Shown in pieces: positions 2,239 through 29,267 of a stretch of 64,000 bases of DNA (positions are counted from its first letter, which is position 1; every line of letters starts with the position of its first letter). The translations under genes were made by a program, and so were the position numbers. Source of the stretch: Minutocellus sp. GHC0000111 (lineage: Eukaryota); the NCBI GenBank assembly GCA_977018835.1, contig OZ361257.1, positions 2,418,001-2,482,000 of the forward strand, given 5' to 3'. The notes below the pieces were generated by a model, which was not told the origin of the DNA, made no database searches, and saw only the letters and a list, made by a program, of their open reading frames with translations.

Positions 2239-5200
2239 TTACAATCCTCCATTAGCGTCGTCTTTCCACCTCACAAGTCTCACAGGCGGTAGCTCCACCT
2301 CCTCGCCCGTTTCGGGATCTTCCACAATGACGGATAAGTCAAAGAAGGATCGGCGTTCGAGTTGCTCTATCTCGACTTGCTGCTCCTTCGTCAGGTCGAC
2401 CTCTGGTGCCCCACCGCCCTCTTCGTCGTCCTCGTCATCGGACATGAAACCGTCATCGATGTCATCGCCAGATATGATGGCGTCTTGTACAAGCTTTGCC
2501 ATGGGCTGACGTAGGACATCCTCGTCGCCTTCGCGCAAAAAGTTTGCGTACAGCATGTAAGGGCCGTAAGATATGGTTGCAATCTCGGCAGCTGGTGTGC
2601 CGTCACCACCGCTGTCCGAGGCAAGCTGCTTGCGCAGATCCTTCAAGAATCGGCTAAGCTTGATTCCGCCCCGGTTGGCCGACTTTTGGCTTTCCTTGAC
2701 AATCATTCTATCCCATATCGTATGCGTCTCGCCGCGATATCCCTCCACCTCCTCGGCGGGCATGGGACACGTAAAGGCAAAGAACGGAAGGGCCAGATTG
2801 ACGAATGCGTTGCGGTGAAGAGTGAGCGGCGCCTTTTGTAACAACTTGAGAAGCTCAATGCAGGAGAGGGCCGAAACAAAGGCCGTTGTTGTTATCATTG
2901 CAGGGACAATGCGCCCTGCGACACGACGAGTCTCCATAGCATCAACCGGTTTGATGCCGTAGCACAGAGCTCGTAGATTGGAGGCGGCGGTGACGAAGGC
3001 GACGTGTCCATTGGCGTCATCGTCCTTCTCGAATTCGGCGGGGTTCAGAGGTTGCACTTGTTGCGTCCAGTCCTTATCACCGTCGAGGAGTTCGACAATG
3101 CGAGAAGTAATACTCTTGCTTTCTTCGTCGTCTGATGATTGCTCTGATGTACGAACCCCTTGTGCTTCGACATCGCATGTTGAAAGAGCATTCGTCGCAT
3201 CTTCGATAGATATCGAACCACCAGCGTTATGAGCGTCGCTGGGCAAGTACATTTCGGCCCGTAACCTCGCAGCAGTTTGAACAAAGTCAACGAGATGCTC
3301 ATTGATGGTCTTTTGTTCAGGAGAATTGCTGGAAGTGTCACTATGAAAGCTGAGGGCCTTGGGCGCTCGTCTCGTACCGGTCCAGAATGCTTCACCGTCC
3401 TCGTCGACGCTGTCGAGGGGATGTTGACGAAGCAAATCTTCCACAGACTTGTTGAAGAGCTTATGTGCAAGCCGAATGGCCCACTCGATTGATTCATTCT
3501 TCACAAGGTTGATGAATTCTGCAGAGTCGCGGTCGTTCGTTGTACTAGCGAGATAGTCTTGGCCAATCTCTTCCGCTGCCTCGAGGGCGGCATCGTCACC
3601 CAGGATGTGAACAAGCCGTCTGGCAAAGTCCGAAATGGAACCAGATGCCAAATCATCGACATTGTCATTTACTTGGCAAGGTCGTTTATTGAAGAGGCCG
3701 TCAAAAAGATCTCGCCCCCACTGGATGGTGTGGCTAATCTCGTAGGGAAAGTTCTTGAGGGTGCATACTGGAATTGCTGGCTCCGGAGGGTCGACAGACG
3801 AGCCGTAGGATTCGCTCTGGCAGGGTACCACAACTTGTACATTGCCCTTGGCGCCAAGAGTCCCGGCGTCAACCAAGCCCTTGCGATGGGCAACACACTG
3901 CGAGTCCATGTAAAGACGTGCATCCACATTATCCAGCGCATTCAAGATGGTGTCTATGCCGTCAGACCAAAATGCATCGTCGAATGCTCCGCCCTCGACA
4001 TCGTCACCAACCTTGCTCGTGTGAGCTTCGATGCGAACTCTCGGGTTGAACCTTTGGATAGCCTCCTGTGCTGCAGCACTTTTGAATTTTCCCACGTCGA
4101 CATCGCGGAATAGGAGCTGCCGACTGAGGTTGGACTTTTCGATAGTGTCCATGTCGGTAAGGACAATCTTTCCTCCCTTGGAAGATCGAGTTCCAGCCGC
4201 CATCGCCGACAAATTCTTGAGAATCTCACACCCAATGGCCCCCGACCCAACGACGAAGAGCTTTTGTGATGCCAGTTTCTTTGTCAACATTTTTCCAAGC
4301 GCATATGCTTGTCCAGCAGCGCCCTCGCAGCCTTTGGCATCCTCTTCGCCATATCCTTTGACCTTCTGCAAAAGTTCGTCGCAATCATACAAAAGAAATT
4401 GCTTGATGGGGTTGTAAAGGCCACTGGCTGCCTTCAATGCCTCTTGTGCACCAAGAGCTCCGCAGAGGGCCTGGACAGGCGCAATCTTGGCCTTGGAACA
4501 TCGGCCAAATCCCTTGACAATAGTCGAAAAGGCCTTCTCAGAGCCATGGTCTCCCCTTGCCGCCTGCGCAGCCATTTTCTTGAAGATGGAAATATCATCC
4601 GACACCAACGCGGCCGGTAGCCTGCCATATTCGTGAGCATAACTATCCAATGCCGAGAAGCACGCCATCACGGCCGATCGGCGGGTCATGTCAAAGCTTT
4701 TCTCAAGATCGGATGCCGCGAACAGGTCCTTATCGGCGTCCGTCTGACCCTCCAAGGCCTTCCAGAGCGATATGAATTCCACCTCCTGCGGCAGCTTGAC
4801 CCTCGAGAAGGACAGCGCATCGTGATTCACAAGATGAATGTAATCCTCGGCATTGGTCTCCTCATCAACACCATCGGCAGGAACTCTTCGAACAGTGAAT
4901 TGAGTTGGATTCTTCACCCGCAGAACCTCGCATCGACCCAAATCGTTCTCTTGCTCGTCACCAGCACCTTCATCGTCCGAATTGAATTCAGCACCCTTCT
5001 GAAAGACAATCTGATCGCCCCGAGATACCTCATGTCTCTCATCTTCCAGGCAATGGACGACGAAGATATCTTCGTCGTCATCTTTGGCACCCTTGCGATC
5101 GTCATCACTGGTGGCCAATTCCATTCGATCCAACAATGTTTCCTTTGGAGTTTCTCCATCCTCATCGACCACAGTAAATGATGGTCCAAAGTCACAAAAG

Positions 5201-6033
5201 GTCCTGGCGAACACACCTGCCGTTTCGACAGATACAAAGGGTATGATTCTTCCCTCGCCCGAAACACTGCTATATCTTCGACAGGCATCATTCAGCACCA
5301 GTTGGGTCGATTGAGGACGATCAATCGACAGAAAGACGGGATTGGACGATCCCAGCATATCCTCCGGATTGCCGGTATCTCCACCTCCCTCACCGAAGCA
5401 GAGAGACATGAACTCCGACCTCTTATGCACCGAAACCCTCAGACTTGGATTCAACCGTCGAAGATATTCGGCCACCAACTCCTCCTCTCCCTCGGCCTCG
5501 ACGTCAATGTCCATCCCCGTCTCGGCCATGGCGGCGTTGCGATATGCCCATCCCAAATCGTCCAGCTTGGCGTAGTGGTACGCCGTGTGCACCGACCGAC
5601 TTTCGGGGTTGTCATCGACCAGCAGCACCACGGACCCAACGCCCGACAGGGCCAGATTCTTCCCACACTCGTACAGCAGACCGGACGTCGGCGGTCCATC
5701 GAGGATGACGGTCGTCTGTCGAACCAACGCATGTGCACGCGCCCCAAGGGTGTACACCTGGCGGGAGTAGCGCTCTTCGTCGGCAGATTGTGTGGCGTCG
5801 GTGGCAACATCATCTATGGTGTTGCTATTGGAAGATGCCCCGCCACGGATTTGATTGAGGCCAAAGGGCAGCCGCCTTCGCAGTCCGATATCCCTTACAA
5901 GTGGAAGTTGCATTCTGGAGCTACCGCCAACGCCGATGACGCCAGGCGATGCCGAAGCAGCGGCTGCGATATGGAGAAAGATGGTCAGCGCGAGCACGAA
6001 AGCGCATGATGAGCCAAACATGGATGGTATCAA
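2239..6033 (-). CDS. UBA1: Ubiquitin-activating enzyme E1 with N-terminal signal peptide; probable periplastid (SELMA) isoform
   Basis: RYSRQVY, VVGSGAIGCE, DMDTIEKSNLSRQLLF, catalytic PVCTLKNFP, FEKDDD, AGRIVPAMITTT; hydrophobic leader ending AASA-S followed by an Arg-rich segment. Confidence 0.92.
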   Translation of the reverse strand: MIPSMFGSSCAFVLALTIFLHIAAAASASPGVIGVGGSSRMQLPLVRDIGLRRRLPFGLNQIRGGASSNSNTIDDVATDATQSADEERYSRQVYTLGARAHALVRQTTVILDGPPTSGLLYECGKNLALSGVGSVVLLVDDNPESRSVHTAYHYAKLDDLGWAYRNAAMAETGMDIDVEAEGEEELVAEYLRRLNPSLRVSVHKRSEFMSLCFGEGGGDTGNPEDMLGSSNPVFLSIDRPQSTQLVLNDACRRYSSVSGEGRIIPFVSVETAGVFARTFCDFGPSFTVVDEDGETPKETLLDRMELATSDDDRKGAKDDDEDIFVVHCLEDERHEVSRGDQIVFQKGAEFNSDDEGAGDEQENDLGRCEVLRVKNPTQFTVRRVPADGVDEETNAEDYIHLVNHDALSFSRVKLPQEVEFISLWKALEGQTDADKDLFAASDLEKSFDMTRRSAVMACFSALDSYAHEYGRLPAALVSDDISIFKKMAAQAARGDHGSEKAFSTIVKGFGRCSKAKIAPVQALCGALGAQEALKAASGLYNPIKQFLLYDCDELLQKVKGYGEEDAKGCEGAAGQAYALGKMLTKKLASQKLFVVGSGAIGCEILKNLSAMAAGTRSSKGGKIVLTDMDTIEKSNLSRQLLFRDVDVGKFKSAAAQEAIQRFNPRVRIEAHTSKVGDDVEGGAFDDAFWSDGIDTILNALDNVDARLYMDSQCVAHRKGLVDAGTLGAKGNVQVVVPCQSESYGSSVDPPEPAIPVCTLKNFPYEISHTIQWGRDLFDGLFNKRPCQVNDNVDDLASGSISDFARRLVHILGDDAALEAAEEIGQDYLASTTNDRDSAEFINLVKNESIEWAIRLAHKLFNKSVEDLLRQHPLDSVDEDGEAFWTGTRRAPKALSFHSDTSSNSPEQKTINEHLVDFVQTAARLRAEMYLPSDAHNAGGSISIEDATNALSTCDVEAQGVRTSEQSSDDEESKSITSRIVELLDGDKDWTQQVQPLNPAEFEKDDDANGHVAFVTAASNLRALCYGIKPVDAMETRRVAGRIVPAMITTTAFVSALSCIELLKLLQKAPLTLHRNAFVNLALPFFAFTCPMPAEEVEGYRGETHTIWDRMIVKESQKSANRGGIKLSRFLKDLRKQLASDSGGDGTPAAEIATISYGPYMLYANFLREGDEDVLRQPMAKLVQDAIISGDDIDDGFMSDDEDDEEGGGAPEVDLTKEQQVEIEQLERRSFFDLSVIVEDPETGEEVELPPVRLVRWKDDANGGL

Positions 6034-6413
6034 ACGGCCAATTTTGGTGCCAATTCTTGTTCCTGGCGACGCTATTGCGACGCACGCGCCAATGTTATGG
6101 ATCGAGAGTCAAAAGTGATGCCCCTTGTTGAAGGAGAGATTTTCGTGCGATTTGCCGCCAAGCGGACGGCGGACAGGACACACGAAAACGGCAAACTTCA
6201 GCATCATCATGGACCTTCCACCTTGCAAGGTCAATGCGCATAGAAATGTTGTTGCCGGTATGCGACTCTAGACTCTCTACCTATATCGATACATGTGCTA
6301 CATTATTGAATTATATTACTGCAGCTGAAGCCAGTATCGGTACCGGTACACGCACTACGGTAGATCAAACTGCTGCCTGCCTCCTCTCCTCCCGCTGCCT
6401 GCTTTGACGAGAA

Positions 6414-7517
6414 TCAATTGTTGACGACACCGATGTCTAAAGCCACTTTTCGCTCGATCTTGATGAATGATGCATTGCCCACTGCATCCTTGACCGTCAG
6501 CGGCATACAGATCGATTCAAGACGTCTCTTTGCCGCTGCATCCCCTCGTAAAAGTGATTTGACAATTTCATCGTAATCGCACCTGGCAATGTCATTCATC
6601 GACTTGCCACAAAATGCCTCTTGGAAAAGATCGTTGCTACATTTCATCTCCACCGTCGCCTTGTATAGCAGGTTATCCTCCCGACCCTGCTTCTCGTCAA
6701 GTAGGGAGATGGCGAATGCTTCGTCTTTGAAGGTCTTCGCCGATCGACAAAGTGTCGCCAGAATATGGTTAGTTGCTGGCAGAAAGATCGCTGGCTTACG
6801 ACCATCCTTACCCGTGCCCTGCACAAGCCGCTCTTTGATGGCAACAAGTGTGGAATCGAAGAATCCATCCTGGATGTATTCCGCCTGGTATGTCCCACCT
6901 GGCAAATGCATGTAATCGAGAAATACCAATTGGAAGTCAACATTCATCTGGCGGATCTTTCCCGCCAGGCCCCGACTTGCTTTGACGTTCCAATCGCCCC
7001 CGATATGGCGATCCATCCTCAGTTGACTGTCATTCTCACGGTTCGCAGTGTACACATTGACGCCGTAGTCCTGCTCCATGGAAAGCGCCCGGGCCAAATC
7101 CCGCCCACGGACCTCCTGCATGATCGGTCTTTTGTTCTGTGCCAAATCCCACGCAATTGCAGCCGGCGTCAGCGCTCGCCTCAACACATTGGCCTGCTCA
7201 AAATCCATGCCTTGTCCCATGGCACGATTTGTAATGTCGGTGAACATACCGCCCAGAAAGAGAACATTTTCCCTGTCGCCATCCCCTACCTGGCGATTTC
7301 TCAAGGGGTGCGATACGTCTTGAGATAACGGCTTTTGTGGTCCAACGTTGAGGTGCTTTTCTTGCCGCTTGATGCGCTCTTCGGCTCGACGTTGCCTTCG
7401 TCTTTCGTTTCTCCTTTCCTTCTGTTGCTGCCGTTTTCCCAACTCCTCGAGTTTCTTTCTCTTACGGCTCTCGGCCACCCGCTCCTTGACCGACTTGCCC
7501 ATCCTCTCTTCTCGCAA
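6414..7517 (-). CDS. Hypothetical protein: basic coiled N-terminus plus globular alpha/beta domain
   Basis: Uninterrupted 367-codon ORF between two TA-palindrome islands; NLS-like RKRKK; no family confidently recognised. Confidence 0.6.
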   Translation of the reverse strand: MREERMGKSVKERVAESRKRKKLEELGKRQQQKERRNERRRQRRAEERIKRQEKHLNVGPQKPLSQDVSHPLRNRQVGDGDRENVLFLGGMFTDITNRAMGQGMDFEQANVLRRALTPAAIAWDLAQNKRPIMQEVRGRDLARALSMEQDYGVNVYTANRENDSQLRMDRHIGGDWNVKASRGLAGKIRQMNVDFQLVFLDYMHLPGGTYQAEYIQDGFFDSTLVAIKERLVQGTGKDGRKPAIFLPATNHILATLCRSAKTFKDEAFAISLLDEKQGREDNLLYKATVEMKCSNDLFQEAFCGKSMNDIARCDYDEIVKSLLRGDAAAKRRLESICMPLTVKDAVGNASFIKIERKVALDIGVVNN

Positions 7518-9837: not shown

Positions 9838-10959
9838 ATGACAATGAACACGCCTGCTCCATCGAATTCTTCCTCCTCCTCCTCGTCGGACATGAATGAT
9901 GACAATAATCTCCAGCGTTCGTCGACCAGCTTTCGAAGAGAACGGCGAAACTCATTGGTCCGTGCCTCAATGCGAGATGCCTTTGCCGGTGCAGCGGCGG
10001 GTGCATTTGCCAAAACTGCCGTCGCTCCGATCGAGCGGGTGAAGTTGCTGATGCAACTGCGAGTATCATCCACGGGCTCTTCTTCCTCGTGCGCCGCCAC
10101 GTCCAGAGCGGGCGATGTACCCGGCGGTTCTGCTCTGCAGGTTGCTCGTTCAGTCTACGAGACGCAGGGCGCAATCGCCTTTTGGAGAGGCAACACTCCC
10201 AACGTCGTCCGGCAGGCTGGTGCTGCCGCGTTGAATTTTATGCTCATGGATTGGTACAAAAGGGCGATATCGCCCATCATGCATTGGTCGTTGTCATTGC
10301 CATCCAATCGCAACGTCGAGGATCGGGTGAAACGAAGGAAGCTAATATCATCTTTTTTAAGCGGCGGTTTGGCGGGAGGGACGACCACAACATTCCTCTA
10401 TCCCATTGAATTCATGAGAACACGGCTAGCAATGGACGTCGGAGCAACGAAGGAAACCAGGCTGTATCCGCGGGGGATGAGGGATGTGTTCCTGGGGATA
10501 TGGAAGTCGGATGGGATAAAAGGATTTTACCAGGGCTACGGCATTGCCCTCTCTGGTGTCATGGTTTATCGCGCTTTACATTTGGGCGGATACGATGCCG
10601 TCAAGACCGAGATTTTACATCGGAGACGATATATGGATCACGCACCGGGAGAATTGCCACGTACAGCTGGCTCGAGCTTAACTATGTCGGAACGGTTCGC
10701 CGCGGCTCAGATTGTAAGCATCGTCGCTGGAACATTATGTTATCCTATAGACTCTGTAAGAAGAAGGCTAATGATGCAAGCAGGACAACCAATCGACGAA
10801 CGATTGTACCGCAACTCGATTGATTGTTTCCGCAAAGTTTTTGTCAATGAGGGAATGCGAGGGTTCTTCCTTGGAATCGGGCCCAACATCATTCGAAGTT
10901 TTGGAGGGGCTGTTTTATTAGTTGGCTACGATGTCTTCAAGGGAATGATTGGTTTGTGA
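9838..10959 (+). CDS. ADP/ATP carrier-like mitochondrial carrier
   Basis: KTAVAPIERVKLLMQ, FWRGN, YPIDSVRRRLMMQ (variant of the RRRMMM signature). Confidence 0.9.
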   Translation: MTMNTPAPSNSSSSSSSDMNDDNNLQRSSTSFRRERRNSLVRASMRDAFAGAAAGAFAKTAVAPIERVKLLMQLRVSSTGSSSSCAATSRAGDVPGGSALQVARSVYETQGAIAFWRGNTPNVVRQAGAAALNFMLMDWYKRAISPIMHWSLSLPSNRNVEDRVKRRKLISSFLSGGLAGGTTTTFLYPIEFMRTRLAMDVGATKETRLYPRGMRDVFLGIWKSDGIKGFYQGYGIALSGVMVYRALHLGGYDAVKTEILHRRRYMDHAPGELPRTAGSSLTMSERFAAAQIVSIVAGTLCYPIDSVRRRLMMQAGQPIDERLYRNSIDCFRKVFVNEGMRGFFLGIGPNIIRSFGGAVLLVGYDVFKGMIGL

Positions 10960-11140
10960 AAGAAGCAGCAGAAGTTTTGATGATGAGGGGTTTGATTGAG
11001 AGATGATTCTCTCAAGAATGTGCCATTGGTCGCTACATGTAGTCTAGCTACCGGTAGATCTAGTGCCGCAAATGGTAAATATTCAATCATAGTGTCAGTA
11101 GATCTATCGTTCCTACCAGCTATGTAGACTAGCTACACGT

Positions 11141-11166
11141 AGCAGCAGCAGCAGCAGCAGCAGCAG
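11141..11166. repeat. (AGC)n microsatellite
   Basis: About 8 perfect agc units. Confidence 0.9.
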
Positions 11167-11414
11167 AGTAGCAGCTTGTCTCTCGCTTGTCGATGTCAAT
11201 GATAATTACTCCTCTAATTTTAGAGTTGAGGCTACCATACAGGGGAAAATTCGTTGGGGAGTGTCAAATGAAAAATTCGTCTGGCCGCCGCCCAGCGGCT
11301 TTCTTGCTTTCCACTCGATTTTGGAAACCCCATGGCATAAAATGCGCCGCCGGTGTTTACTTCCAAGATAGTTCCATTCCGCAACTAAACATTCGCCTAC
11401 ATCACTTATATGTC

Positions 11415-11927
11415 ATGAGCGTGAACGAAGTCAAGCTCCGAAAGGCGGAAATTGAATTCGAAGTGCGCGGCACAGGACATGCTGGATCACGGACTTTTGC
11501 TATCGGAGACGAAGATCACACGCTGGGCAACTGCCTTCGACACGTTCTGATCCAGAACCAAAAGGTTGCCTTTGCGGGTTACTCGGTGCCTCACCCTTCG
11601 GAGCCCATTGTTCACCTGCGCGTCCAGACGGCCAAGGGATCGGTCAGCGCAGGTTCGGGTAGTGGCAATTCCAGCAGCAGCCGTCGCCGTCGCAGATCGG
11701 CCGATGAGGATGAGATGGACGTTGATGAAGAGGGAGGTGATCGGATGACTGCGGTGGATGCCCTCAAGGAGGCCTGCCAGACTCTGAGTGATCAGTGCGA
11801 CTTTGTTCTTGGCGCTGTAGAAGAGGCGCTTCCGGAAGTGAAGGAGGATCGTGAAAGAATTGAGAAACTTGCCCTCACTAGAGGACACGATGATGACGAA
11901 GATGAGGAAGACGACGATGATGAGTGA
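11415..11927 (+). CDS. POLR1D: RNA polymerase I/III subunit AC19 (RPAC2)
   Basis: DEDHTLGNCLRHVL...FAGYSVPHPSE...HLRVQT; start placed at MSVNEV. Confidence 0.9.
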   Translation: MSVNEVKLRKAEIEFEVRGTGHAGSRTFAIGDEDHTLGNCLRHVLIQNQKVAFAGYSVPHPSEPIVHLRVQTAKGSVSAGSGSGNSSSSRRRRRSADEDEMDVDEEGGDRMTAVDALKEACQTLSDQCDFVLGAVEEALPEVKEDRERIEKLALTRGHDDDEDEEDDDDE

Positions 11928-12054
11928 GGAGTTGATCAGGCGAAATAGGAATCCCTAATTTGACCGAGTCATGCGATGATGTTGAAGAAGAAGAGTTCAA
12001 GGTTTAAGAAAGAGATTGAGGTGCAAGGAGTAAATGTGCAATGAAGGGAATGCC

Positions 12055-13467
12055 CTAAGTTAAAACTAACTCATCGGACTGTATATTGAAGTCTTGAGCA
12101 ATATCATCATATTGCTTTCTTCGACGCTGTCTGTAGGCCAAGGAAAGGAAGGCAGTAATAACAAGAGCAGCGAGAATGCCGGCCGATATTGCCAACATTA
12201 GTCTATGCCCTCCAGTATCGACCATACGCTGGTACCACAAGGCGCGGGCACAATTATTGTATTCCCGACTTGTCGCTGCTGTTAAAACGCATCCCCAGTC
12301 TCGCGCACAGTTGGCAACGCATGGAGGTTGAGGGGCACCGACGCGTTGGTTGGACAAAAACACCTCCAATTCATCCCCGTTTGCTGCAATCGAGTCAACA
12401 ATCGATCGCATGGTCTGCGTTGTCATGCTTTCAACTCCATATGCCTCTTGAAAATTGTACAGTTGCTGCCAAGTGGCATTGCTTCCACTCCCGTTTAGAT
12501 CCAAATAATACGTCTGATAGTTTTGGACTTCACCATTTGCATTGTCATACTCTACTACTCGAAAGGAGGGATTGCCTCCGAAAATAGGGGTGACCGAGCT
12601 CGTCAAAAGTATTGGTGAAGCATTTTCCGGAAGCAGGCGAAATTCATCACTGTGTAGATGTCCGAACAACTGAGCGGTAATCGTATCGCTGTACTCGTCA
12701 ACTAAAGCAAGATACTGCTTTAGATACCTTTCTTGCCAGAACTGTGAATGACGATAGGAACCAATGGCGGGAGGGATATGCGAAGCGATCATAACATGGC
12801 CTCCTTCCGCTTTTATTCGCTCCAATTTCTTGCGCAGCCACTCGAACTGCCCCAACGGATCGTCACCGGAATACCGAGGCTGATGGTTCATTGAAAAAAT
12901 GACGCTGTTCAATGCAATCATCTTAACATTGTTGCGCATAGGACGGGAGAAATACCCTCCTCGTCGGAACGTCTCAACTTCAGACTTTGCCATGAAGGAT
13001 TTGAGGTTACTATCCATTGCCATGCGTAAGACCTTTGGGTCATCGACGTCAAGATAGTAGTCGGCGATCGCATCGTTATTTCCCAGACACCAAACAATCG
13101 AAGTGCGTGGAAATACGCTCCTGAAACCATGGCCGATCTGATTGAAAATGTCTGTTAGCGTGGTCTCTGCCGTTGTCAGTCGGTCCATACCATGTCTCGA
13201 TATATCTCCAGTTACGAGAATGAAATCTGGTGAAGGGAGGGCATCCTTGGCCGCTCGGAGGGTGTTCTGAATTAGAGATAATGGGGCATCGCACTCTACC
13301 TGCCCCTCCGAGGGTGCATTAGCAGAGGAGCAGGATGTTCCTCTGGTAACCCAAGCATCACCTTGGCTGTAGTAAGGATCGTAGTGGAGATCGCTCAGCC
13401 ACAGGAATCGGCCCGTCTCTGCAATGCAAAAATGAGGAGCAAGGGCCAGAACAAAGGAGAAGAACAT
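12055..13467 (-). CDS. Acid sphingomyelinase-like phosphodiesterase (calcineurin-like metallophosphoesterase), signal peptide and C-terminal TM
   Basis: SDLHYD, TGDISRH, LGNND, SHIPP, GHLH, NPSFRV motifs. Confidence 0.9.
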   Translation of the reverse strand: MFFSFVLALAPHFCIAETGRFLWLSDLHYDPYYSQGDAWVTRGTSCSSANAPSEGQVECDAPLSLIQNTLRAAKDALPSPDFILVTGDISRHGMDRLTTAETTLTDIFNQIGHGFRSVFPRTSIVWCLGNNDAIADYYLDVDDPKVLRMAMDSNLKSFMAKSEVETFRRGGYFSRPMRNNVKMIALNSVIFSMNHQPRYSGDDPLGQFEWLRKKLERIKAEGGHVMIASHIPPAIGSYRHSQFWQERYLKQYLALVDEYSDTITAQLFGHLHSDEFRLLPENASPILLTSSVTPIFGGNPSFRVVEYDNANGEVQNYQTYYLDLNGSGSNATWQQLYNFQEAYGVESMTTQTMRSIVDSIAANGDELEVFLSNQRVGAPQPPCVANCARDWGCVLTAATSREYNNCARALWYQRMVDTGGHRLMLAISAGILAALVITAFLSLAYRQRRRKQYDDIAQDFNIQSDELVLT

Positions 13468-14563: not shown

Positions 14564-14767
14564 ATATTATCAATCACAGGTCAGGTATTCCTCCATGTTG
14601 CATCGTCGTCGAGTACAGTTGGACCGAGTCAGAGTTATCTCGTCTCTCGTCCGCCTTTGTGATAATCATGGATCATGGATGGGGATTGTCGGCCGGAATG
14701 CATGCCGGAATGGCTGGCCAGCGGCCGGCGGCGGCCAGACCAACCATAAGTAAATGAGGATAGTGTG

Positions 14768-17700
14768 CCTTTCGAGTTCAGAGGATTTGAAAGTGACGTG
14801 ATTAAGACGTATTAGAAACACGACCACACCAGACCAAAAATCCAAGCTCACTTTTTCTAACTCCGAGGAATAAATGACGGCCAAGATGGAAGTCGGGGCA
14901 AGAACCAAGTTATGGTCACCAACTTCTACATATAGTCGAGAGATATTGTGCACCAGAACCAATAAATGTACATTATGTGATGATTTTTTTCGACATTTGC
15001 ATTCCTCACCCCGGGAAAAAATACATTTTTGGAAGCACCAAATCAAAATGTAATGAATAGAAATGGACATGCTATGATAAGTTATAGCAAATCAATGACT
15101 CCATCGTCTTCATCATTTTCATCTATGTCGTCCTCAATGTCATCATCTTCGCCGGGAGCATCAATTGGCCAGAGTGGTTCACCATCCTCTTCAGCTTCTT
15201 CCTCGGCAATTTTTGCGAGACCAGCCTTTCCCCGTCTGGTCTCCACAAGATTGTTACCGCCACGACTTCTCTTGATGTTGTTATATATCACTGGAAGTTT
15301 TCCAAATACATTGAGAAAGGCCTCTTTTGATGCGACATTGGCCCATACTTTCATCACAGTCTTGTCAAGAGCATTCGCATCATTCTTCTGACCGCGATGC
15401 TCCTTTTCGACGGCCGACTGCAAAGACATCCAGATGCCGAGATCAAGAACATTTGTCTCGGGCGACCGAGGAACCTGCTGGATTATCTCAATCTTATATT
15501 TGTTTTTGAGGTCCTCGGTGTACTTCTCAACTGCTTCATTGGACCCATGACCGCCGGCATTGTCCATCATAAGATGTGTAACATCAGACTCCTGAATATT
15601 TTGTGGATCCCACTTCACCCAATGATGTGCGTCTCGAATCGCCTTCCCGACCTCATTCATAGTCTCCAACATCCATTTGGAGTCGCAGCTACAGTCCTTG
15701 GTAACCTTATCGCCCCGTTGATACCGCACCCCGAGCTCAAGGTCGTCGATCTCAACCTTCACCTTCTCTCCATTGCTATCAGGAGTGTGTCGCTTGAGAC
15801 TCGAGATCTTTTGATTGTAGCCAACAGCGGCATGCTTGCGACTTTTTGCCTGACCGTCGGATTTATAGTCCTCGTGTTGAAGTTCCAATCGCTCTGTAAC
15901 AAACTCAGAAAGGCCGTAGATTTCGGCAATGTGGTCGCAAAGATGGCCGGCGGTCATGTCAGCATTCTCGTCGTAAATGTCGCGCCAATCTTTGTCATTT
16001 TTTAGCGCATCGTTGACCTTAGCATCTGGAGAGAAATTCTGATTACGCGTAAGCTTTTCCACCTTCTGCTCCCTGGCGACTCTCTTGATCATGATGCGCC
16101 CATTGAAATCAACGTCTTTGGTTTCATCCTTCATTGGTCGGCCAACAACTCCAAGATGCATAACTTTGACAGGGTGTCTTCTGGATCGAATTTTCGGGCT
16201 TGCCTCGGAAGCATGGACAGACGCGAGGTTCGGACTGCAGAAAGTGGCAACATCTTGATCTTTCATCAAGATGCGCTGCAGGAATGTTGGGATCGGTCGC
16301 AATGTCCTCCCACTTTTCGATCCAACCAAGTCGCTTCCTGCAATGTTCGGGGGTGAGCCTCGGCTTCTCGATCGACGACTTCTCCTTGCCGCCCCTTGCT
16401 TTTTCCACCAGCGAAAAAGCTAAAGACGATGGAGACTAATTGTCAGCCTATCTTTACCTGGAGTGTAGCAGCTGATTTTGCGCTCATGCAGTCAGCTAGC
16501 TCCTTAAAGGTTGCCATCGCACCCTTCATCCGAGCAGCACACCGATGCAGCTCGCGGAGACATCCTGGCTCCTTCTCCTCGATCATGTCCGTGCATGCCT
16601 TCCTTCCACGAACCTCCTTTCTGCCGATGGGATTGCTGATGCCATCAGTAAGGCTTTTGTAGAGCTGGTCTCTCCACTTGTAAAGCTGAGAACCACCGGT
16701 TGACTTGGCACAACCGTGATCGCACGCAACTTGCCGACACGCGGCAGTTGCAATTTGTTGCCGGTCTTCATGCGTGCGAGTTGGGTCGCCGCATCCCCAC
16801 CAATCCGCGAGAGCCACGGCGCTGAACCGCATTCTTTCATTCGCCTGCTTTTCTTTTCTGATTGGTGTTGGTTCGGTGACGGTTGCATTGGGACGAGGAG
16901 GACGGAGCATGTCATCGTTGGCCATCCGAACAACAAAGTCGAGGCGGAGAGCGACCTTTGCCTGTTCATCAATGTCACTGGAGGTGGCACAGACAACGGA
17001 AGCATCGGCTCCTCCTAAACCTTCATCATTGGGGGAGGCTGCAGCTGCTTCAGTGGCGGAAGTGTCACCAGTTCCCTTCAGCATGCTGAGGAGACTTGCT
17101 GGCATCCAACCCAGTTTCTTGGCCTCGTCGACTAGTGATTTTACTCTTGCTTGCTTCGCAATGCGCTGACTGCACCTCCTTTCTGTGAGCTGACAACCTC
17201 TCACCTAGCTTAGTAGCTAAGACAGTCGAGCGCCCAGAGAACAGAACTTCATCGGGATTTCTTTTCTCGTGCACCTTCTGTCCCTCCGGTCCAGAGAATT
17301 TCGGGTGGTTGTCCTCCTTCTTTTTACGCAACCTGTGAGCACAAACATGAAGCGCCCTGCGTCTTGTCTTCCCTCTCGGCCGACACGTCGACAAGTGCAA
17401 CTTCAAACTGCAATGCTCCTTCCTTGAGATGTTGCTGCATGTCCTTCCATTTTTCCTCGTTGCACTGTAGCTCATACTTTCCTCCCCACCGACGGACTTG
17501 GAACGCAACAAGTCGGCCTCGATGAAAGCAGGGAGGACGTCTTCCCACTTCTGCCGAGAACCAACACAAATGTCATCTTTGCCGCAGGAGTCGGGGGTTG
17601 CTCTCCACCACAGATCCTTACCAGCCCTTCGAATGACATCTGCTGCAAGGAGAAAGGCCATGGGGATAGGAGGAGGGGCCGTCCTCTTCTTCGCCGACGA

Positions 17701-18190
17701 CGGGGTGACGGTTTGGCGCGGGGGCGAGTTTGACCGTGGCCGCTTCTTCGACGTGTTTGCGCTCGGCGATGGTGTTTTCGGCTCAGCTGCCGCCTTTGCC
17801 GCCTTCCTGGATGCCTTGGTGTTGCCTCTCTTGCTCCCTGAGAACGAAGTTCTGCTGCGTTTGTATTTTTTGGGCGTGGTCTGGTTGGTCGTCGTCATCG
17901 TCACAAAATTTGCGGGGGGGTTGCGGTGAGAGGGTGTGCGGGGGACCAAAAAACACATGTGTTCCTGCCAGAATCTACTGGACCTGCGAATTCAGTGGAT
18001 ACTACTGGTCGGTGGCAACCTACTGAATGAGCAGGTCCAGTAGATATCCACGAGTTGAGGAGTATTTGCGTTCCTCCCGAAGAGAACATCGACTAACAAA
18101 ACACGTGGTGGGAGATGAGAAATGGGTGCAAGAATGACCTTTTTTAGGGGTTATTGGTATACCCTCTACAAATCCTCTGAAACCGAAAGG
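14768..18190 (-). mobile_element. Tc1/mariner-type DNA transposon, degenerate
   Basis: 22-bp TIRs CCTTTCG(AG/GT)TTCAGAGGATTTG (20/22); TA at 18191-92 and TG at 14766-67; transposase fragments AHLDE, MDNAGGHG, PRSPETNVLDLGIW in broken frames 15082-17958. Confidence 0.9.
15082..17958 (-). pseudogene. Frameshifted mariner-like DDD transposase
   Basis: Four or more frame pieces (17958-17065, 17204-16443, 16408-16124, 16329-15082); apparent Tyr-to-Cys/His changes (VACDHGCAK, GCLRELHRCA). Confidence 0.85.
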
Positions 18191-18235
18191 TACACTTTTA
18201 GAGCCTCTTTCGGCCAATAGTGTACATTTACTGTA

Positions 18236-18353
18236 CACTATCCTCTCCTCCCTGGTTGGGAGAAAGTCGATTTAGAATAAGAAAAATGGGGTGCTACCTC
18301 CTACAAAAACTCAATTTTCTTATTGCTTCTCCCAAGGTAGACGGAGGATAGTG
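18236..18353. mobile_element. 118-bp MITE-like element
   Basis: TA|CACTATCCTC...GAGGATAGTG|TA with further imperfect inverted arms (ttgggagaa / aataagaaaa). Confidence 0.7.
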
Positions 18354-18959
18354 TACACTGAGAGGCTCTTTTTTGTACACTCGCTCCAGGTAGGAAGTCG
18401 GGCATAATTAGTGACAAGATCTTTTGCCTCCTCGGCCTCTCTCGACAATTCGAGCCACGCTGGATCCAACGTGCAACATCTGTGGGGGAAAAGATTAAAA
18501 AGGCGGGCAGGAATGCCACTTGCTTGCACCGCCGACGCTGTGCGGCTTGTGCATCGGTCCATGTTGCTGCCCTCTTCATTTTATGTCGAATGCACGTGAT
18601 GGAAGCAAAGGACCGATCGATACTGTCGTCAAATTTTGCGCAGATTGGGCCAGAGAAATAGATGGAAAGAGAGCAATTGAGAGATTGTGAAGCGTCCTTT
18701 CGAAGATGACTGTGGACAGGAAAACGGTCGTGAGTACTAGTAGAGGACGCAGGACGCACCGGAACATGTGTGCAAAAAAGTTAAATGTACCATTGCGATG
18801 GAACGAAATTATGATTTGCAGAGATAACGCACGTTCAATTCGAATGGCATAAATATAAATTTGTATGCAGCTCATAACAGAGTACGCAGCTGCAGCACAT
18901 GTATTGCAATTTGCATGTCAAATACATGCATTGATCATGAATGTAATATATAATATATA

Positions 18960-19136
18960 CAGTCCGTTCTCACCTATAAGCAATTGGTAATTGCTTAGGT
19001 GAGGGCTGAGATTCTGAGCATATTGCTTATTCTAAGAGCTAATTGGTACCTCATTCGCATGTTATTCCTTATTCCAAAATAAGCAATTTGAGACCTCGGG
19101 CCCGAGTCTCAATTGCTTATAGGTGAGAACGGACTG
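18960..19136. mobile_element. 177-bp MITE, pogo/Tc1-type ends
   Basis: Perfect 27-bp TIR CAGTCCGTTCTCACCTATAAGCAATTG; TA on both sides (18958-59, 19137-38). Confidence 0.95.
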
Positions 19137-20662
19137 TAATGCATGCAATGTTTGGTGCAGAATTTTTGTACCGGTAAAACGACTAGCAGGTTAAGCATAT
19201 TAACTCAGCAGATCTCAAAAAAGTATTTGCGCTATTAATTTTAATCGTAAATGCATCTGCATATCTATCTAGACCTACAGTCCAAACTGTAGAATCACAA
19301 CCGATGCTGCCCCACTTTCAAAGTAGCAGATCTAGCCTCGCGATGCGCATTGAGTGCACACGTTCACACGCATGAATTACATGTACACCACCCAATTATC
19401 TGCATCTCTCTGTTGCTTCAACCCTTGCATGCATTCCCACCGGTATGTTATGCTCGTCTCGTGCCTCTGCTCTGATTGATCATGGCCGCATCATGGCATC
19501 ATCGCATCATCGCTCACATTTGTCGTTGTCGACACGACGCGGCAAGCAGCGCACTTTTACTACCTCGGCTCGGCCCATTTCGCCCACATAACAAAGATAT
19601 CATCGACATCTTCGCCATTCTTGCCTTCGTTTTACGCTGATTGATCGGCCGCACCTCTACTTGGCGGAGTCGCGATCTTGGAGGCACACGAAAAAGTTCC
19701 ACGTTGATGCGTTTAGACGACGAGAATGAATGTGACTCTCGGCTTGCTCGTCTGCCAGCCGTTCCACGATTTCCGCAATACCGAGTAGCTGAATTATAAA
19801 AAAAGATACGGGCCGATGTTTTTCATCGGGGGCGCCCGGTGCTTGCCTGTCTTCCGCCTCCTGGGGGACGGAATAAGTCGGCCATCTTGAGCTCTGCTAC
19901 TGCTAGTATGTGCCTCATTTTGTCTTCGTCGTTTCAGAGCTGCGCTGTTTTTGTTAGTACACTACCAACGGATGGAGGGTGGACATCAAGTGTACACCAT
20001 CCTCCTGCACTCCTACCTAGGCCTAGGTACGTAGCATGCATGGCCAACAAGCAGAAATTTGGCGCCTCGACGATTTGCAGATCTCTTACATGCACCGGTA
20101 CGTGTACCGTAGAGATTGCAGCAAGTTTCAAGATGGTACCGGAATTTCCTCCTGCTCTCTATCCAAAAGCAAGGAGGACTGGTAAACCTACAAAGCTAGG
20201 CTCTAACGGTAGATCTTGGCTGAGGGAAAGAAGAAGATGATGTGTATGTGAGAGCGGGGGAATTTGTTGTGGGATTCGAAGGGGTGCCGGTGTCGATCGG
20301 CCATGCCCAAGAGTGAGTCTGCCGTAAACAAGACATGTGCGCACGCACAAACGCACTGCGTTCATTGGGTTCCAACGCATGCACACACAATTGTCACAAA
20401 ACTTATGCTTGGGTTATTTGTCGGTTAAATATCTACAGGAGGGGCACATAAGCTCTGCAAGACCCAGTCTCCCCATCTATTGGTAGGTCGATCGCAAACA
20501 GGGATCAGAAGGCATTCATTGACAGTTGTTGGTTGCCTGCGCATGAGCGCTGCTGTTCACGCAGTTGATGTAATTGAATGAACATAAAGGCGTCCTTATG
20601 CGCAAAGGGCAGCGTCAAAAATTTCGAAGCACGTTCCACGTTGGCAATGCGATGCAATGAAT

Positions 20663-22856: not shown

Positions 22857-23311
22857 GGTTGAGAGAGTGGAGAATTTGAATTGTGAACGCGCGCCAGCAT
22901 GTCTCGTGCTTGAAAAATTTGGCGCATTGCGCCACAGGAGCTTTCGGGAAATTTGCGGGATGGCGAAAATCGGCTGAATTTTGCATGATTTAGCGTTGAA
23001 GGACCTCGCAGAAATCGGCACGACTTGCGCACATTCCTTTACGTCGACTTTGCGCAAAATTTACGTAAAATTTACGCCGATTTTATGTTCACTTGACGCC
23101 AATTTTACGCCGACTTTACGCCATCTTTACACGCAAAGCATGCCCCGCGAAAGAGCAAGAACATCACCAAATGTGAGTCATCGCCAACAGCAATGCATCA
23201 TGCACTTCTTGCTTGCTTTCATGCACGTGCACACATGAGCCGGAATCTGCACACACATCCTTGTCCTTGTCCTTCCTTGTCCTTTCTAGTCCATGTTTTG
23301 GTGGGGACACG

Positions 23312-24448
23312 ACTTGAAGACTTTGTTGAACATGGCGATGTGGGTGTCGATGATGGGTCCCCCGTCGTGCTGCTTCTCGAGCTGCTTCTCTAATTCCTCC
23401 TTCTGAGTCTCGTTGAATTTCAAGCAGCGATCGGTGATGCTGTGTCGATGATTTGGCGGATGGTGACTGGCTGGAAACCGAGCATGTCATCTTCGAGATG
23501 ATTGATGTAGACGGCGTCGATCGAGTCGAGGAGGAGATTCTTGAGCGCCGTGTTGACTTGCTCGTGCAAGTTGCAGTGGCCCCCTTTTCGACGTGCAACA
23601 TTGTCTCCCCGGACGTTGCACGATCGCGTTGGTCTAGATTGGCCACGGCGGGAATGGTGGGGCTGGAGCCAGGATTTGCCGGAGGCACATGTGGTCGGCC
23701 GTTACTTTTGGTGGTGTGTTCGGCATCGCTGACGACGAGGCCCAAATGGCCGAGGTTGTGGTCATGTTGCACCCTGCTGGAACACGCTGGCCGCCGCTTG
23801 CTTGTTGAAGCTCCTTGAGCGCTTTGGCAACACGCTCGCGTTGGGGAGGTTGTCCTGGGTCATTCATACGTGTGATTAACTTGGTGGGGAGAATCGGCGC
23901 TGCGCCGAGAGGTTGGCCAAAAACTGCGTCGGGATTCATGCTGGTGTTTCAGTCAGCGAAGACAGAGGCAGCACGGCGGTGTTGCTGCTGCGAGACGTGT
24001 GATCGACAGAAGGCTCGATCCAGAGAAGTGTGATCGATTGGATGGGTCGATCTGGTCAGGACTTTCGGGGAAGGGATTGGATCGTCGTTCCAATATTGTC
24101 GAAAGAAACTGTCGTTTTGGCCGATTGAAGATGTGTCGGTTTTTCTTGCGTGACGAGTGAGAACCCAAGACAAACCGGGGAGAGAGGTGCGAACCGAAAT
24201 GGGGCGAGCACGGGTGGAAAAGATGTGTCACGTAGGTCTGCTAAGAGGTCCTAAAGCTAAGCTAGATAGATATAGCTTGTAGAGGTTAATGGGACCTACG
24301 CAGATGAAAAATGGGCCATCGGAGATGTCGTTGGCCCATGATCGTTGGCCCATGGATCAACGGTCAGGAGAGGGCACTGAGTCAGTGGTCTGATCACCGT
24401 ACGTACCGTACGTACGTATACGTACGTACGTAACCCACGGCATCAACG
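23312..24448 (-). mobile_element. Truncated Ty1/Copia (CoDi-like) copy: 5' LTR 24239-24448, leader and 5' part of gag
   Basis: 23313-24038 aligns with 63303-64000; LTR aligns with 58196-58390. Confidence 0.95.
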
Positions 24449-24449
24449 A

Positions 24450-25050
24450 CCCTGGCTTGAACCGCGACCCTGCTCATGCGGGCTTCTGGTTACAGGCAAC
24501 GCCAGACGCTTAAAAACGATTTTCTCTCTCCTGGTCCTCAACTATCCGTAGAGCATCGTTCCCAACATCGTCTTTGTTCCTGTTCTCCCACTCGATCTGA
24601 AGAGCAGCATTGCAGCAATTGTGGCTAGCTTCTTTTTTGTGCAAAAAAGAGAGGCAAACACACACATGCACCTGCATGAAACAGATGAACAGCATGCAAA
24701 TAAATCGATGCATGTTCGAACTCACAACAATGGACGACTCGGCGCTGATCGCTTTGATCCATTTCCACACCCAATGTCGAAATGTCTTCTCGTCAGGACG
24801 ACTTGGATTGCGGACCTTTTGTCACACACACACATGTCGGATTCGGTCCCATGTGTTTTGAGAAACATGATCGCCCAAAGCATGTGTTCTGGACGTGACT
24901 TCGGCACATCGGCAGCACACCGATCCCAAATGTCGGACATCACTTGAGGGGGCGCAGTGCCATGCGATTGCCGCCATCGTCTCCACTGCTGCTCGGGGTC
25001 GGTCGGTCGGCGGATGCAGAGAGAGAGCGACACTTGCGACCGAGCACTTC
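24450..25050 (-). pseudogene. Harbinger/DDE_Tnp_4-like transposase remnant
   Basis: HMLWAIMFLKTHGTE, PDEKTFRHWVWKWIKAI, IEWENR..DVGND pieces; catalytic core missing. Confidence 0.7.
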
Positions 25051-25618
25051 ATTGCCCCATTGCCACCACGCCTCTGGAGGGAAGAGCGCAGTGGCCGTGG
25101 ATTTGGCATGACCATGTGGCTGTCGTCCTGGCTCGCTCCTCCTTGCTCCTCTTTCCTAGCTCGCTTCTTGCCATCTTGGCCGTCTTTGCCCCGCCTGGGA
25201 GCAACATCGACAAATCGCAATCACGAATGAGCAACCCGGAAAGTGAGTCGCCAAACAAGCCCACGAGCAAGGCCCACGAGCAAGACCGAAGCAAAGTGAC
25301 GCCATTGGCACGCCAAGCCAACGTGCACCCATTCAAACGCCCCCCAAGACCCCAACGCCCAGAATTATCGCCAATGAGTCCCCCGGGGCTCATCGGCGAA
25401 TCGTCACGACTTGAGCGCAGATGCATCGCACCCCAAGTAAAAGCATGCGATGTGGATGATGCCACAATCCAAAGATGCCAGATCAGCAGCTTAAGAGGGC
25501 GCTGTCCATAATTTTCCCCGTTTTTAATCCCCCTTATTCTTATTTCTTATGACGAGCGAAGCATGACAAAAACTCGACCCCACCATGAGAATCGCCGCTC
25601 TGCCCCCTCTTCATTACG

Positions 25619-26848
25619 ATGAAGCGCAGCGCTGATAATAGTGCCGGCCCGGCCCACAACGCAGATACCCGGTCGCGGAAACTCAAGACAGATAACTCCG
25701 GTCGCCCGATTTTGCCTGTTGACAAGAAGAAAGAGAAGGCGGAGGACAAAGCGAAAGACGCCGTTACCGAGATACTGGAGGGCCTCGCCGTCACGTTGGA
25801 GAACGACCCGAACGGACAAGGACGAGAATTATGGAACAATCCCGGCGTCGGCCATGCACTTCAACATCTTGTCAAAGCAGTCGAGGCTCGCGCTGATAAG
25901 TATCATGTTCGGGATGATATTGATGTCGCTGCTGAGCGGCCCGGCCTCGTAGTTACCAACCTGTCCGTGGCTGATGTGAAGTTGAGGCTGACGGTCGGCA
26001 TCGTCGATCAATTGCAAGATCCCATGTTTGACGCCGGACCTGAATTCTTCCCTATATTTCAACTTCATGGGAAACGGATCGATATTGGATCGGCTCTTGC
26101 TGCGCACGGCCGACCTTTCAACACCACATCGCTTACTTTGCTTGATGGAAGCGGAAAGCTTATCGTCGCTCGTGTTGCCCTGACAATTACCGAAAAGGAC
26201 CGAAGTCTACAACAGGGCCATGTGATCAAATTGACAAAGTTCCACCGATGGCATGTGGCTCCATATGATGACATACACTCTACTGCTGGGATTGGACTAG
26301 TTGATTTTGATATTGTTGGAATGGGCCAACTTCTGCAGGTAGATGGTGGGCCATCAGCAGCGATCAGATCGGACACGGATGCTCTTGTTGCGGCCGTTTG
26401 TGAGGAAGCCGACGATGATCCGACGGCAGCGTCGGAGGCAGACACATTCGGTAATTGGGACGAGACCAGAGAGAGGCCGCCAATACCCCCTGCTTGCTGC
26501 ACTGCCGCCAACCGAAGCTGCTCAATGTACGGCACACTCTTCTTTCAGAAATGCGTCTGCGAAGAAATGCTGGTGCCGACGGAGGAGGACCTGGAGGATA
26601 TCGCTGACAAATACTACGCAACCACCATGCCAGTCGAAGCCATGGCAAATAATTTCAAGAGGAACATGCTGTATTGGTACTATGCAACTGAGGTGTATCA
26701 TGTGAGAGGTTGGCTTGATCGGAAGCCCTTGCCAACCTGTCTAGTCTTTTGCATTAGGTTAATTTATCCAAATGATAAAGGTGAACGATATGTTGGATTC
26801 ATCCCTGGTCATCAAGATGAAGAGGAAGAAGAAGAGGAAAATGCATAA
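25619..26848 (+). CDS. Kolobok accessory protein (KolX-like) with a putative OB-fold
   Basis: C-terminal RKPLPTCLVFCIRLIYP...G.RYVGF resembles the KolX / P2X7-ballast motif; intact 409-aa ORF within the TIRs. Confidence 0.75.
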   Translation: MKRSADNSAGPAHNADTRSRKLKTDNSGRPILPVDKKKEKAEDKAKDAVTEILEGLAVTLENDPNGQGRELWNNPGVGHALQHLVKAVEARADKYHVRDDIDVAAERPGLVVTNLSVADVKLRLTVGIVDQLQDPMFDAGPEFFPIFQLHGKRIDIGSALAAHGRPFNTTSLTLLDGSGKLIVARVALTITEKDRSLQQGHVIKLTKFHRWHVAPYDDIHSTAGIGLVDFDIVGMGQLLQVDGGPSAAIRSDTDALVAAVCEEADDDPTAASEADTFGNWDETRERPPIPPACCTAANRSCSMYGTLFFQKCVCEEMLVPTEEDLEDIADKYYATTMPVEAMANNFKRNMLYWYYATEVYHVRGWLDRKPLPTCLVFCIRLIYPNDKGERYVGFIPGHQDEEEEEEENA

Positions 26849-26952
26849 TCATTACCTCAACACATGTAGATAACAAGAATGTGCGTAGCACATGAGTAAC
26901 AGCACACAATAAATCCATTTTTATTTACAGTGATAAAATATTTTACACGTGT

Positions 26953-29267
26953 TTACAAGCTGCCATTTTCTCTCAGTATCGCCGGCATCCAAGAGCTAAC
27001 ATCATTTGCCGATACACCGAAGTTTGTCTTAGCTTTCTTATTATTTCTTGCAGATTTCTTGTTGCTGCCTGGGCTTCTGCGCTTCTTTCCGGCGTAAACG
27101 ACAACGTCGTCAGCATCGTCGCATTGACATTCAGCCCGAGTGTGGCCAAGCTGCTTGCATTTCTGACACTGCTGGTCAATCTTCTTCTTGCGGCCAGGCT
27201 TTGCTGGTTTCGCCTTACCAGCAGCTAGGGCCCTGTTCTTCTTGTACACATAGTCCTTGTCGTCTTTCTCGCTTCTGTTTCGCAAGGCTGCTCGAAGGCG
27301 CTTGCTGTCGCTCTTGCTCTTTTTGTACTCATCGGTGCGCTTACGCGCAAGGTCGCCCTCGAGCTTCCGGTCAATTGCATCGAATCCATCTTTTCGGGTA
27401 GGAGAATCCCTCGATCCCAACTTTCCAAGAACTCGCTCATTGAATTCCGTACCCAGTGACTTGTGGCCAGCGGCTCTACTTGTTGCATTTGGGTAGGCGT
27501 CTGAAGCAGTCAAATTCGGCCTTTTCCCCATCGTGAACTTCGTCACCATCCCGTTGAGCTGTTCCGACGCCGGTGGTAGATTCCTTCTTGCAGTTGGAGT
27601 CGGCAGCATTCTTGTTGATTCTCTTGGTTATTTCAAGCGTCATCTTGCGAATCGTGTCGTCACTAATCTCCAATATGTCGCCATCGAATTGATTCCCCGA
27701 GCTCCATTCCTCATCGAGCTTGCCATCACTCCAATCAGGATGAGCAATGCTGAGGCGAATCCAATCACACGTGTTGGTGGTGCAAAAAGTGTGAATGCCA
27801 CATTGGTGACGAACGACGGACTGGAGTTCTTTCTGAAGGAGGGCCAGATGACTTTGTTTTTCCTCCTCGGACACAGCACCATCGGGCTGATCGAGAACGC
27901 TGTGCTTGTACCGATCAGTAATCTTCGAAATGTCCTGTTTCATCCGATTGATGCGTGGTCGGGGGATGGCATAAAAATTTTCAACTCCCAACATTCTCGG
28001 CCAGATGCTCCTCTGCCACACCGGGGGAGTGGGAAGAGTTGCGATAGCAGAAGCCATCATGGTCGTACAGGGCCAGCATCTCATCCTTGCTCATGTTTTT
28101 GAGCTCACTCGGCGTTATTGGATTGCCGGCTTCCCGCCTCTCCCTCAATCTTGCATTGCAGGCTCTCACGCAATGGTGGCAGCTTGCCTGAGAGATTCCC
28201 TTGTCAACAACAAGGCCAGTTTCCTTGTCTACGGCAAATACCGCTGCAGCAGAGCCAGTGTAGCAATGGCCGTAGTCGCGTTTGAGGGCGCTGCCGTCTT
28301 GGGCCACCGTAACCACCGCCGCCGTGTGCATCTCGCCGCCTTGTTCAAACTCAACAGTCTTGCTGCTAGCGGCATGTGCTTTTGCCCTATTCTCGTCAAT
28401 GATTTCATCAGCTGCTTCAACAGCCGCTGCTCTGCATTTCTTTTCCACCTGTCGGGCATTCTTTTCGGTCGGATGGACGATGTCGGCCTTCGTGCAGAAA
28501 TTCATGAAGCGACTTGCGCACATGGCCTCATCTTCCGCTGCCTCCATCAGCTCCAAGCTCATTCCAGCCTGACTTCTAGAATGCTTTCTGCCGGGGCACA
28601 CAACTTCTGACCTCTGGCCGATCCAAGTGCAAAAAGAAAAAGGTTGGTTGCATCTATCGCATCGCCATTCAAATGTAACGCCGAATCCACGCCGAACTGG
28701 CTCGGCCGAGAGATGCAGATTGCCGCACGATCGGTGGAGACTCTGCACGAAATCACACAGCTGCTTCATCTCAACCACAATTCTTTTGCCGTTGAGCTGC
28801 ACGCCGGTGATGTTGGGACGATCGGCAGCGTTGGCGGTGGGAGTAGATGACCGACCGCCCGAAGAATTCTTGTCGGAATAATGTTTCAGCATCGCGTTGA
28901 GATGGGGCCCATGCTTTTCATCGTCCTGGAAGTAATTTTCAGGCATGGTCGGCAGTGATCGCTTGCCATTGCGTTGAGAGCGTGGGCTGGCGTTATCGGC
29001 TATTCTGGAGAAGCGGTAGAAGGGCTTTGCAACGTCAAGGCCTGATATTTTCTCTGGACGTCGTCGTTGGATGTTGACCTCGTGTCGTGTTGGGACGTGT
29101 TGAAGAGATGATCGAACAAGAGAGATCTCTAAGCTCGGCGACACGCCACCGCGCATCAAGATGCGGACAAGCTCATCAATAGTGTAGTAAGTACATCTGA
29201 CGTCGTCTGGGAATGAGAGCAAGAGTGAGAGGATTGCCTCCTTGGCGTTAGCACGTGATGTTTCCAT
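26953..29267 (-). pseudogene. Kolobok DDE transposase, frameshifted and internally deleted
   Basis: VTVAQDGSALKR...TGLVVD...CHHC, CYRN...AEE, SEQLN, C-terminal CQKCKQLGHTRAEC knuckle; three frames, second Asp region absent. Confidence 0.8.

Follow-up and report, generated by a model that had tools for sequence, protein, structure and literature searches.

A Tc1/mariner transposon in the genome of Minutocellus sp. GHC0000111 carries the marks of a targeted process acting on DNA, a hypermutation of TAY to TGY that differs from copy to copy. We assign this reading a probability of about 0.93. The copy under study lies in a contig stretch of 64,000 nt (the window), in which transposons alternate with host genes, among them those for a ubiquitin-activating enzyme and mitochondrial carriers. 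One host protein groups with clusters that are entirely (100%) eukaryotic and most often from Bacillariophyta, at scores of 0.91-0.93 and with low recognition value, and on this basis the host is probably a diatom. A TA signature had been predicted from the letters of this copy. It is present, but the motif proved narrower than TA and comprises TAC and TAT.

The features of the element are collected in Table 1. A 22-bp TIR exists at both ends, as the original prediction had stated, with two mismatches between the arms in an inverted-repeat comparison. The two target sites had also been read correctly, as TG on the left and TA on the right, whereas the predicted end at 17500 fell 690 nt short. 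In runs X2 and X3, contig depth (which is not equivalent to copy number) was 77-85 in the left flank but 10,000-13,000 per contig within the element. Together with a protein cluster of 275 members, this depth points to roughly 100 or more copies.

Table 1. Positions of the element, its parts and its flanks in the window
Feature	Position	Strand	Basis or remark
Left target-site duplication, reads TG (mutated TA, GTAC context)	14766..14767	+	Single-copy contig X2/X3; flank-motif twins
Tc1/mariner-superfamily DNA transposon, multi-copy, this copy decayed	14768..18190	-	TIR pair; depth step; L001 match
TIR, 22-bp, element 3' end	14768..14789	+	
Lightly hit 3' part	14768..16100	.	2 TA sites listed lost, 50 kept; no 2-5 nt insertion among listed rows
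Transposase coding region	15082..17898	-	Frame broken: small duplications, two small deletions, one stop (16422)
Heavily hit 5' part	16101..18190	.	TA sites: at least 28 lost, 37 kept; holds every 2-5 nt insertion listed for this copy
TIR, 22-bp, element 5' end	18169..18190	-	Same TIR at L001 start
Right target-site duplication, TA intact	18191..18192	+	
Low-copy repeat, apparent pre-insertion target together with 14730-14765	18195..18407	.	Depth 515-558 in X2/X3; motif twins

A metagenome scan for relatives yielded one locus out of 266 candidates. This relative (L001), from another metagenome, has an unbroken frame of 919 aa and shares 67-71% nucleotide identity with the element as far as its terminus, where it carries TA and the same TIR with a different flank. 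The predicted structure of its catalytic domain (pLDDT 88.8) gave Mos1 (E 3e-7), Sleeping Beauty and SETMAR as top matches. Among 68 homologues, DDE_3 was found in 11 and HTH_Tnp_Tc3_2 in 8 in Pfam at E<=0.01. At 1e-3, Pfam gave no transposase family for the ORFs of the element in the window or for close copies, and a PDB search by sequence found nothing. The element is a Tc1/mariner transposon, combining TIRs, a TA target duplication and a DDD/E transposase with a Mos1/Tc1 fold. By residue spacing it could be labelled DD39D, as 39 residues separate the last two Asp in the C-terminal part of the transposase, and we take elements so spaced to be plant-mariner-like. It shares with them the TIRs, the TA target duplication, the 39-residue DDD triad and the Mos1-like fold, but its protein of ~900 aa differs by a long N-terminal part and by a catalytic domain that contains a large insertion. 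In the RNA runs X6 and X10, the element was covered deeper than host genes on contigs that may include DNA, and the TA allele was present at 15876.

The mutation spectrum was read from 56 protein fragments of sibling copies mapped onto the codons of the window, giving a non-synonymous readout. The copies were gene-model fragments from ENA contigs that measure 21 kb to 5.3 Mb and are taken to be of the same species, and run contigs served alongside them; one locus may count twice, and the members listed were 15 of the 275 in the main cluster. Before counting, 27 codon positions (by hand) and 8 read-supported letters were reset to the inferred prior state. A>G was found at 388 of 1233 scorable TAC/TAT positions (0.31) versus at most 0.007 in non-TA contexts, the absolute rates being partly circular through this resetting, with outgroup Tyr supporting the Tyr columns. 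By context, the counts were 230/695 at TAC, 158/538 at TAT, 16/304 at TAA and 3/247 at TAG. TA overall gave 407/1784, with transversions at 3/3074. Elsewhere, A>G was seen at 13/3647 AA, 8/3113 CA and 3/4471 GA positions (together 24/11231), and C>T at 17/2887 CpG and 6/3069 CpA positions. The rate at RTAY (0.35-0.39) was above that at YTAY (0.17-0.19), and the strands were symmetric, with 234/1027 on the coding (0.228) and 173/757 on the template strand (0.229).

The reads carry the same type of change. Among the 40 variants listed of 44, 35 fell within the element and 5 outside it, and 25 of the 35 were of TA type. These 25 cover 20 TA sites, seven of which carry both TG and CA alleles by hand count, and TA, TG and CA alleles occur at identical sites in reads of three studies. 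Four further listed variants of the element are A>G following an A, so a 5' T is a strong rule with exceptions.

At eight Tyr sites, 12 of 12 copies had distinct haplotypes. Adjacent hit pairs lay on the same strand in 64 of 134 cases versus 61.5 +/- 4.9 expected, ruling out strand-coordinated bursts. Since the 12 patterns all differ and neighbours are not strand-coordinated, the hits likely came after insertion, as single events and not as processive bursts. ADAR-type RNA editing of a retroelement intermediate would give a one-strand pattern, which was not found, and an RNA stage is excluded because the element belongs to a DNA transposon class and Cys and His are mixed within single copies. 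The proposal that mutation occurs on chromosomal DNA was supported: the changes are strand-symmetric and copy-specific, they lie in a Tc1/mariner element, and they include the flanking target TA.

The hits are unevenly distributed along the element. In nine copies spanning both parts, RTAY Tyr codons were lost at 52/63 5' of 16150 versus 6/40 3' of it (p=8e-12), a comparison in which copies whose 3' part stays open are favoured by the gene models. The copies lie on several contigs, and on this basis the gradient appears to be a property of the element rather than of its neighbourhood. It does not mirror CpG decay, as C>T at CpG was equal in the 5' and 3' parts (12/1988 vs 5/899). The hot part of the window copy also holds at least nine insertions of 2-5 nt, mostly tandem duplications, and all those seen among the 12 indels listed of 46 fall there; two small deletions occur besides. 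In a Copia-like pair in the window, compared over about 720 nt, 10/10 indels were 2-5 nt insertions in one copy, including 6 exact tandem duplications. Placement of the short duplications at TA (2/9) or at CpG (5/9 vs 4.1 expected, P=0.38) was rejected.

As to the cause, adenine deamination by a putative host enzyme is the likeliest reading, with chances that we consider about even. A candidate enzyme of the TadA/ADAT type would deaminate adenine in the DNA of inserted transposon copies, on either strand of TAC or TAT, and the lesion, putatively inosine, would be read as G at replication, so that Tyr becomes Cys or His. Hits would accumulate singly over many cell divisions, as the lack of strand coordination between neighbours suggests, and a TA turned into TG or CA would cease to be a substrate, to judge from the 237 changed Tyr codons, of which 1 shows a double hit. 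Degradation of the transposase would proceed without the making of stop codons, while the co-located 2-5 nt duplications would break its frame. Silenced-repeat chromatin or small RNA may provide the aiming signal. In the available text of two studies, TadA-derived adenine base editors favour 5'-YAY over YAR, with AAA worst (PMC10188366, PMC12528748). Such editors and ADAT2/3 resemble the process in making A>G with 5' and 3' pyrimidine preference, which fits TAY over TAR. However, as described there, the editors are engineered, guide-aimed and tolerant of CA, whereas the process in the element is natural and strict for 5' T. The coldness of CA here (8/3113) therefore counts against the deaminase step. 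So does the lack of same-strand clusters, which a single-strand deaminase might leave (64/134 vs 61.5), and so do the short duplications, which are not centred on TA (2/9) and which deamination leaves unexplained.

A single process covering both signatures, co-located as they are in the 5' part, would be an error-prone polymerase (pol eta- or theta-like) that fills repair gaps in silenced repeats, placing G opposite T at TA and producing the short duplications. We rate this as unlikely. The Copia pair, with all 10 indels being 2-5 nt insertions in one copy, speaks for it, and so does AA lying a little above GA (13/3647 vs 3/4471), as pol eta prefers WA. However, AA is about 60-fold colder than TA, the spectrum of pol eta is far less pure than the 3/3074 transversions found at TA, and gap filling should leave same-strand runs, of which none were seen. 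Because the change is pure and the motif tight, base chemistry suits the data better than a sloppy polymerase.

Base chemistry of another kind, which we hold to be quite improbable, would have the T in RTA of repeats enzymatically converted to a 5-hydroxymethyl- or 5-formyluracil type that mispairs with G, so that TpA decays like methylated CpG. TA is self-complementary and could bear a symmetric mark, the hits are independent per strand, and A>G is indistinguishable from T>C on the other strand in sequence data. Modified thymine occurs in dinoflagellate repeats. However, a literature search on it found one dinoflagellate review and no diatom paper. Sequence alone cannot separate deamination, error-prone repair and modified thymine.

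A genome-wide TA>TG/CA bias, visible only where selection is absent, would agree with the under-representation of TA throughout the window (o/e 0.59), yet it is very improbable given the state of the host DNA. There, TA o/e is 0.64-0.68 and RTAY o/e is 0.81, 0.85 and 1.00 in three stretches, versus 0.25 in the 5' part of the element, 0.53 in its 3' part and 0.36-0.58 in four other transposons, the comparison being that of one window. Variants between samples in unique DNA (39 among the 40 listed of 75, many in genes) comprised 22 transitions and 17 transversions, and only 4/39 were of TA type versus 25/35 in the element (Fisher 6e-8, among the rows listed). Among copies, non-TA divergence is <0.7% while TAY loss reaches 13-39%. 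The idea that destroying TA removes Tc1/mariner target sites was not supported for host DNA, which keeps its TA, so that landing sites are lost only within repeats that are already dead. The absence of TA from 16683-17015 was confirmed (TA at 16681, the next at 17016), and this gap is the second-longest in the window. As stand-alone proof it is weak, since gaps in GC-rich host DNA reach 285 nt. A 55%-identical relative with a single member (P0012) has retained its Tyr, a possible hint, if it comes from the same genome, that low-copy or recent elements escape and that the process depends on copy number or age.

The direction of change was established from the Tyr columns. For 24/24 of them, one or more sister or outgroup proteins have Tyr, and the residues of the copies there count 184 Y, 119 H, 117 C and 1 R. 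Conversely, 0/403 residues turned into Tyr at 25 Cys/His columns, a 26th (16345) being itself mixed H/C/Y. The intact L001 shows no depletion, its RTAY o/e being 0.83-1.21 with 32 Tyr in 919 aa, although this metagenome contig may represent the majority of copies. The window reads TG/CA at 11/17 of the aligned RTAY sites of L001; in the reverse comparison, window TA stands opposite TG/CA of L001 at 10/28 sites, which an identity of 69% would lead one to expect. Compared with the sister family, every copy carries three fixed Tyr>His changes, so the founder element was probably already lightly hit.

The four peptide strings on which the original prediction was built are all present in the window, and seven of the eight residues it had bracketed as mutated derive from Tyr. 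The eighth, the His of D(H)G at 16718, is no mutated site, being His in 24/24 copies and in L001 and Gln in P0008/P0012. A consensus carrying Cys or His had been named as the result that would speak against the prediction. The majority is indeed already Cys or His at several sites, but the mixture of the two together with outgroup Tyr gives the direction. The copies read C16/H6/Y0 at 16562, C14/H6/Y5 at 16724, Y11/H10/C3 at 16712, C10/H8/Y1 at 16595, C12/H7/Y1 at 16547, H18/C2/R1 at 16541 and Y10/H7/C5 at the LDE site.

These data leave hardly any room for a reversed direction, whether a RIP-like CA>TA change in the other copies or CpG decay (CG>TG/CA). CpG decay would likewise leave both TG and CA alleles at a site, a mild excess of C>T is seen at CpG (17/2887), and one CAG>TAG change occurs at 16422. 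But the outgroups have Tyr and not Arg, Cys or His, which refutes both for the element; 0/403 residues became Tyr, C>T at CpA is 6/3069, and a CG o/e of 0.84-0.96 shows no CG depletion. The element was therefore assigned neither to RIP, as its direction is TA>TG/CA, nor to methyl-CpG decay, as the ancestral codons were Tyr.

The targeted process also reached the left target site. In both X2 and X3, an unbranched single-copy contig covers 14400-14793 without any difference, placing the TG in the reads. The flank motif GAGGATAGTGT-R-C has two exact twins bearing TA (18233-18245 and 18344-18356; chance 0.08), located 50-150 nt past the right end of the element, and because these twins read TA, the original target was TA. 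An assembly or base-calling artefact at modified bases is scarcely credible even though the records of X1-X3 lack a library type, since that contig carries the TG, both alleles occur at high depth in separate studies, and the assembled copies have distinct fixed patterns.

A TpA signature is already known from viral DNA in Bigelowiella natans, where integrated NCLDV and virophage DNA undergoes TpA>TpG/CpA hypermutation (Mettrop et al., 10.64898/2026.01.13.699255). According to the main text of that study, the de novo rate is about 6e-7 per site per generation, about 1000-fold over background and active in some lines only; ADAT2 is proposed, and TpA-poor DDE and RT genes are remarked upon. As far as that text goes, the two cases share almost exclusive A>G/T>C transitions at TpA, on both strands of chromosomal DNA and confined to foreign or mobile sequence (here, in one window). 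However, B. natans is a rhizarian whose single-copy viral regions were caught de novo, whereas we deal with a DNA transposon of 100+ copies in a probable diatom. The TAY motif (best RTAY), the internal gradient and the short duplications go beyond that account, in whose text, supplements apart, 'trinucleotide', 'context' and 'diatom' have 0 occurrences. What is added here to the known signature is the lack of strand clustering, a gradient from hot 5' to cool 3' within the same copies, and the co-located 2-5 nt duplications. RIP of ascomycete fungi, as covered by the available text of PMC2621366 and PMC7296669, likewise hypermutates repeats through transitions at specific dinucleotides and degrades them on both strands. 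It makes C>T, mostly CpA>TpA, and creates TA and stop codons, whereas the process in the element is the exact reverse and makes no stops. A literature search, with most subscription literature outside its reach, found no report of a TpA signature for diatoms.

Tentatively, these features could be combined into a diatom 'reverse RIP', in which an adenine editor of DNA, natural, specific for TAY and common to diatoms and rhizarians, is aimed by a signal within the element (the 5' part is three times hotter than the 3' part at many loci) and killing transposons jointly with a short-duplication activity. If the present reading is true, a second SAR lineage would possess a DNA mutator aimed at A>G changes, and a natural adenine editor of genomes, recognisable by its TAY motif, could be found in a group having knock-out tools. 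It would also mean that diatom transposon work is distorted, with consensus sequences drifting to Cys/His, TA target sites missed and uniform-clock ages inflated. A recent diatom transposon dating study assumes a uniform rate, and its available text has 0 occurrences of 'TpA' and 'dinucleotide' (10.1101/2025.10.24.684338). In the diatom P. tricornutum, transposon methylation depends on DNMT5 (PMC9998398). With its 100+ young copies, the present family lends itself directly to working out rules of motif, strand and position.

Several further observations were made in the window. Private double changes two bases apart occur in this copy at 14803-14805 and 16455-16457, each making a TA. In one X2 contig, 17486-17568 is replaced by letters with telomere-like CCCTAA repeats, as might result if telomere addition had healed a broken copy. 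A second TA-flanked TIR element with mariner-like frames (53499-56381; RTAY o/e 0.58) has both target TAs intact, and in run X16 its TIR directly adjoins the right end of the studied element, with a loose end at 18194. The adjacent stretch 56382-58190 has an RTAY o/e of 0.14 and includes, at 56790-57550, degenerate tandem repeats with a very high CA/TG content. Another TIR element (25489-29738; RTAY o/e 0.48) matches a Mutator-like transposase (PF20700, E 2.5e-14) and has ends that read TTAA followed by the TIR, and a 181-nt MITE at 18958-19138 has perfect 29-nt arms beginning with TA. The two Copia-like copies (23150-25480 and 58196-64000) differ by TG/CA doublets, TA-type changes and the ten 2-5 nt insertions, which the 23-kb copy alone carries, and the longest TA gap of the window (456 nt) falls in this pair. 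Short multi-copy elements lie between host genes at about 1310-1410 and 11130-11235, as seen from depth spikes and loose ends. In the unique DNA of 614-6588, the 39 listed differences include five adjacent double substitutions and a cluster of six changes at 5785-5802, more than independent SNPs would yield.
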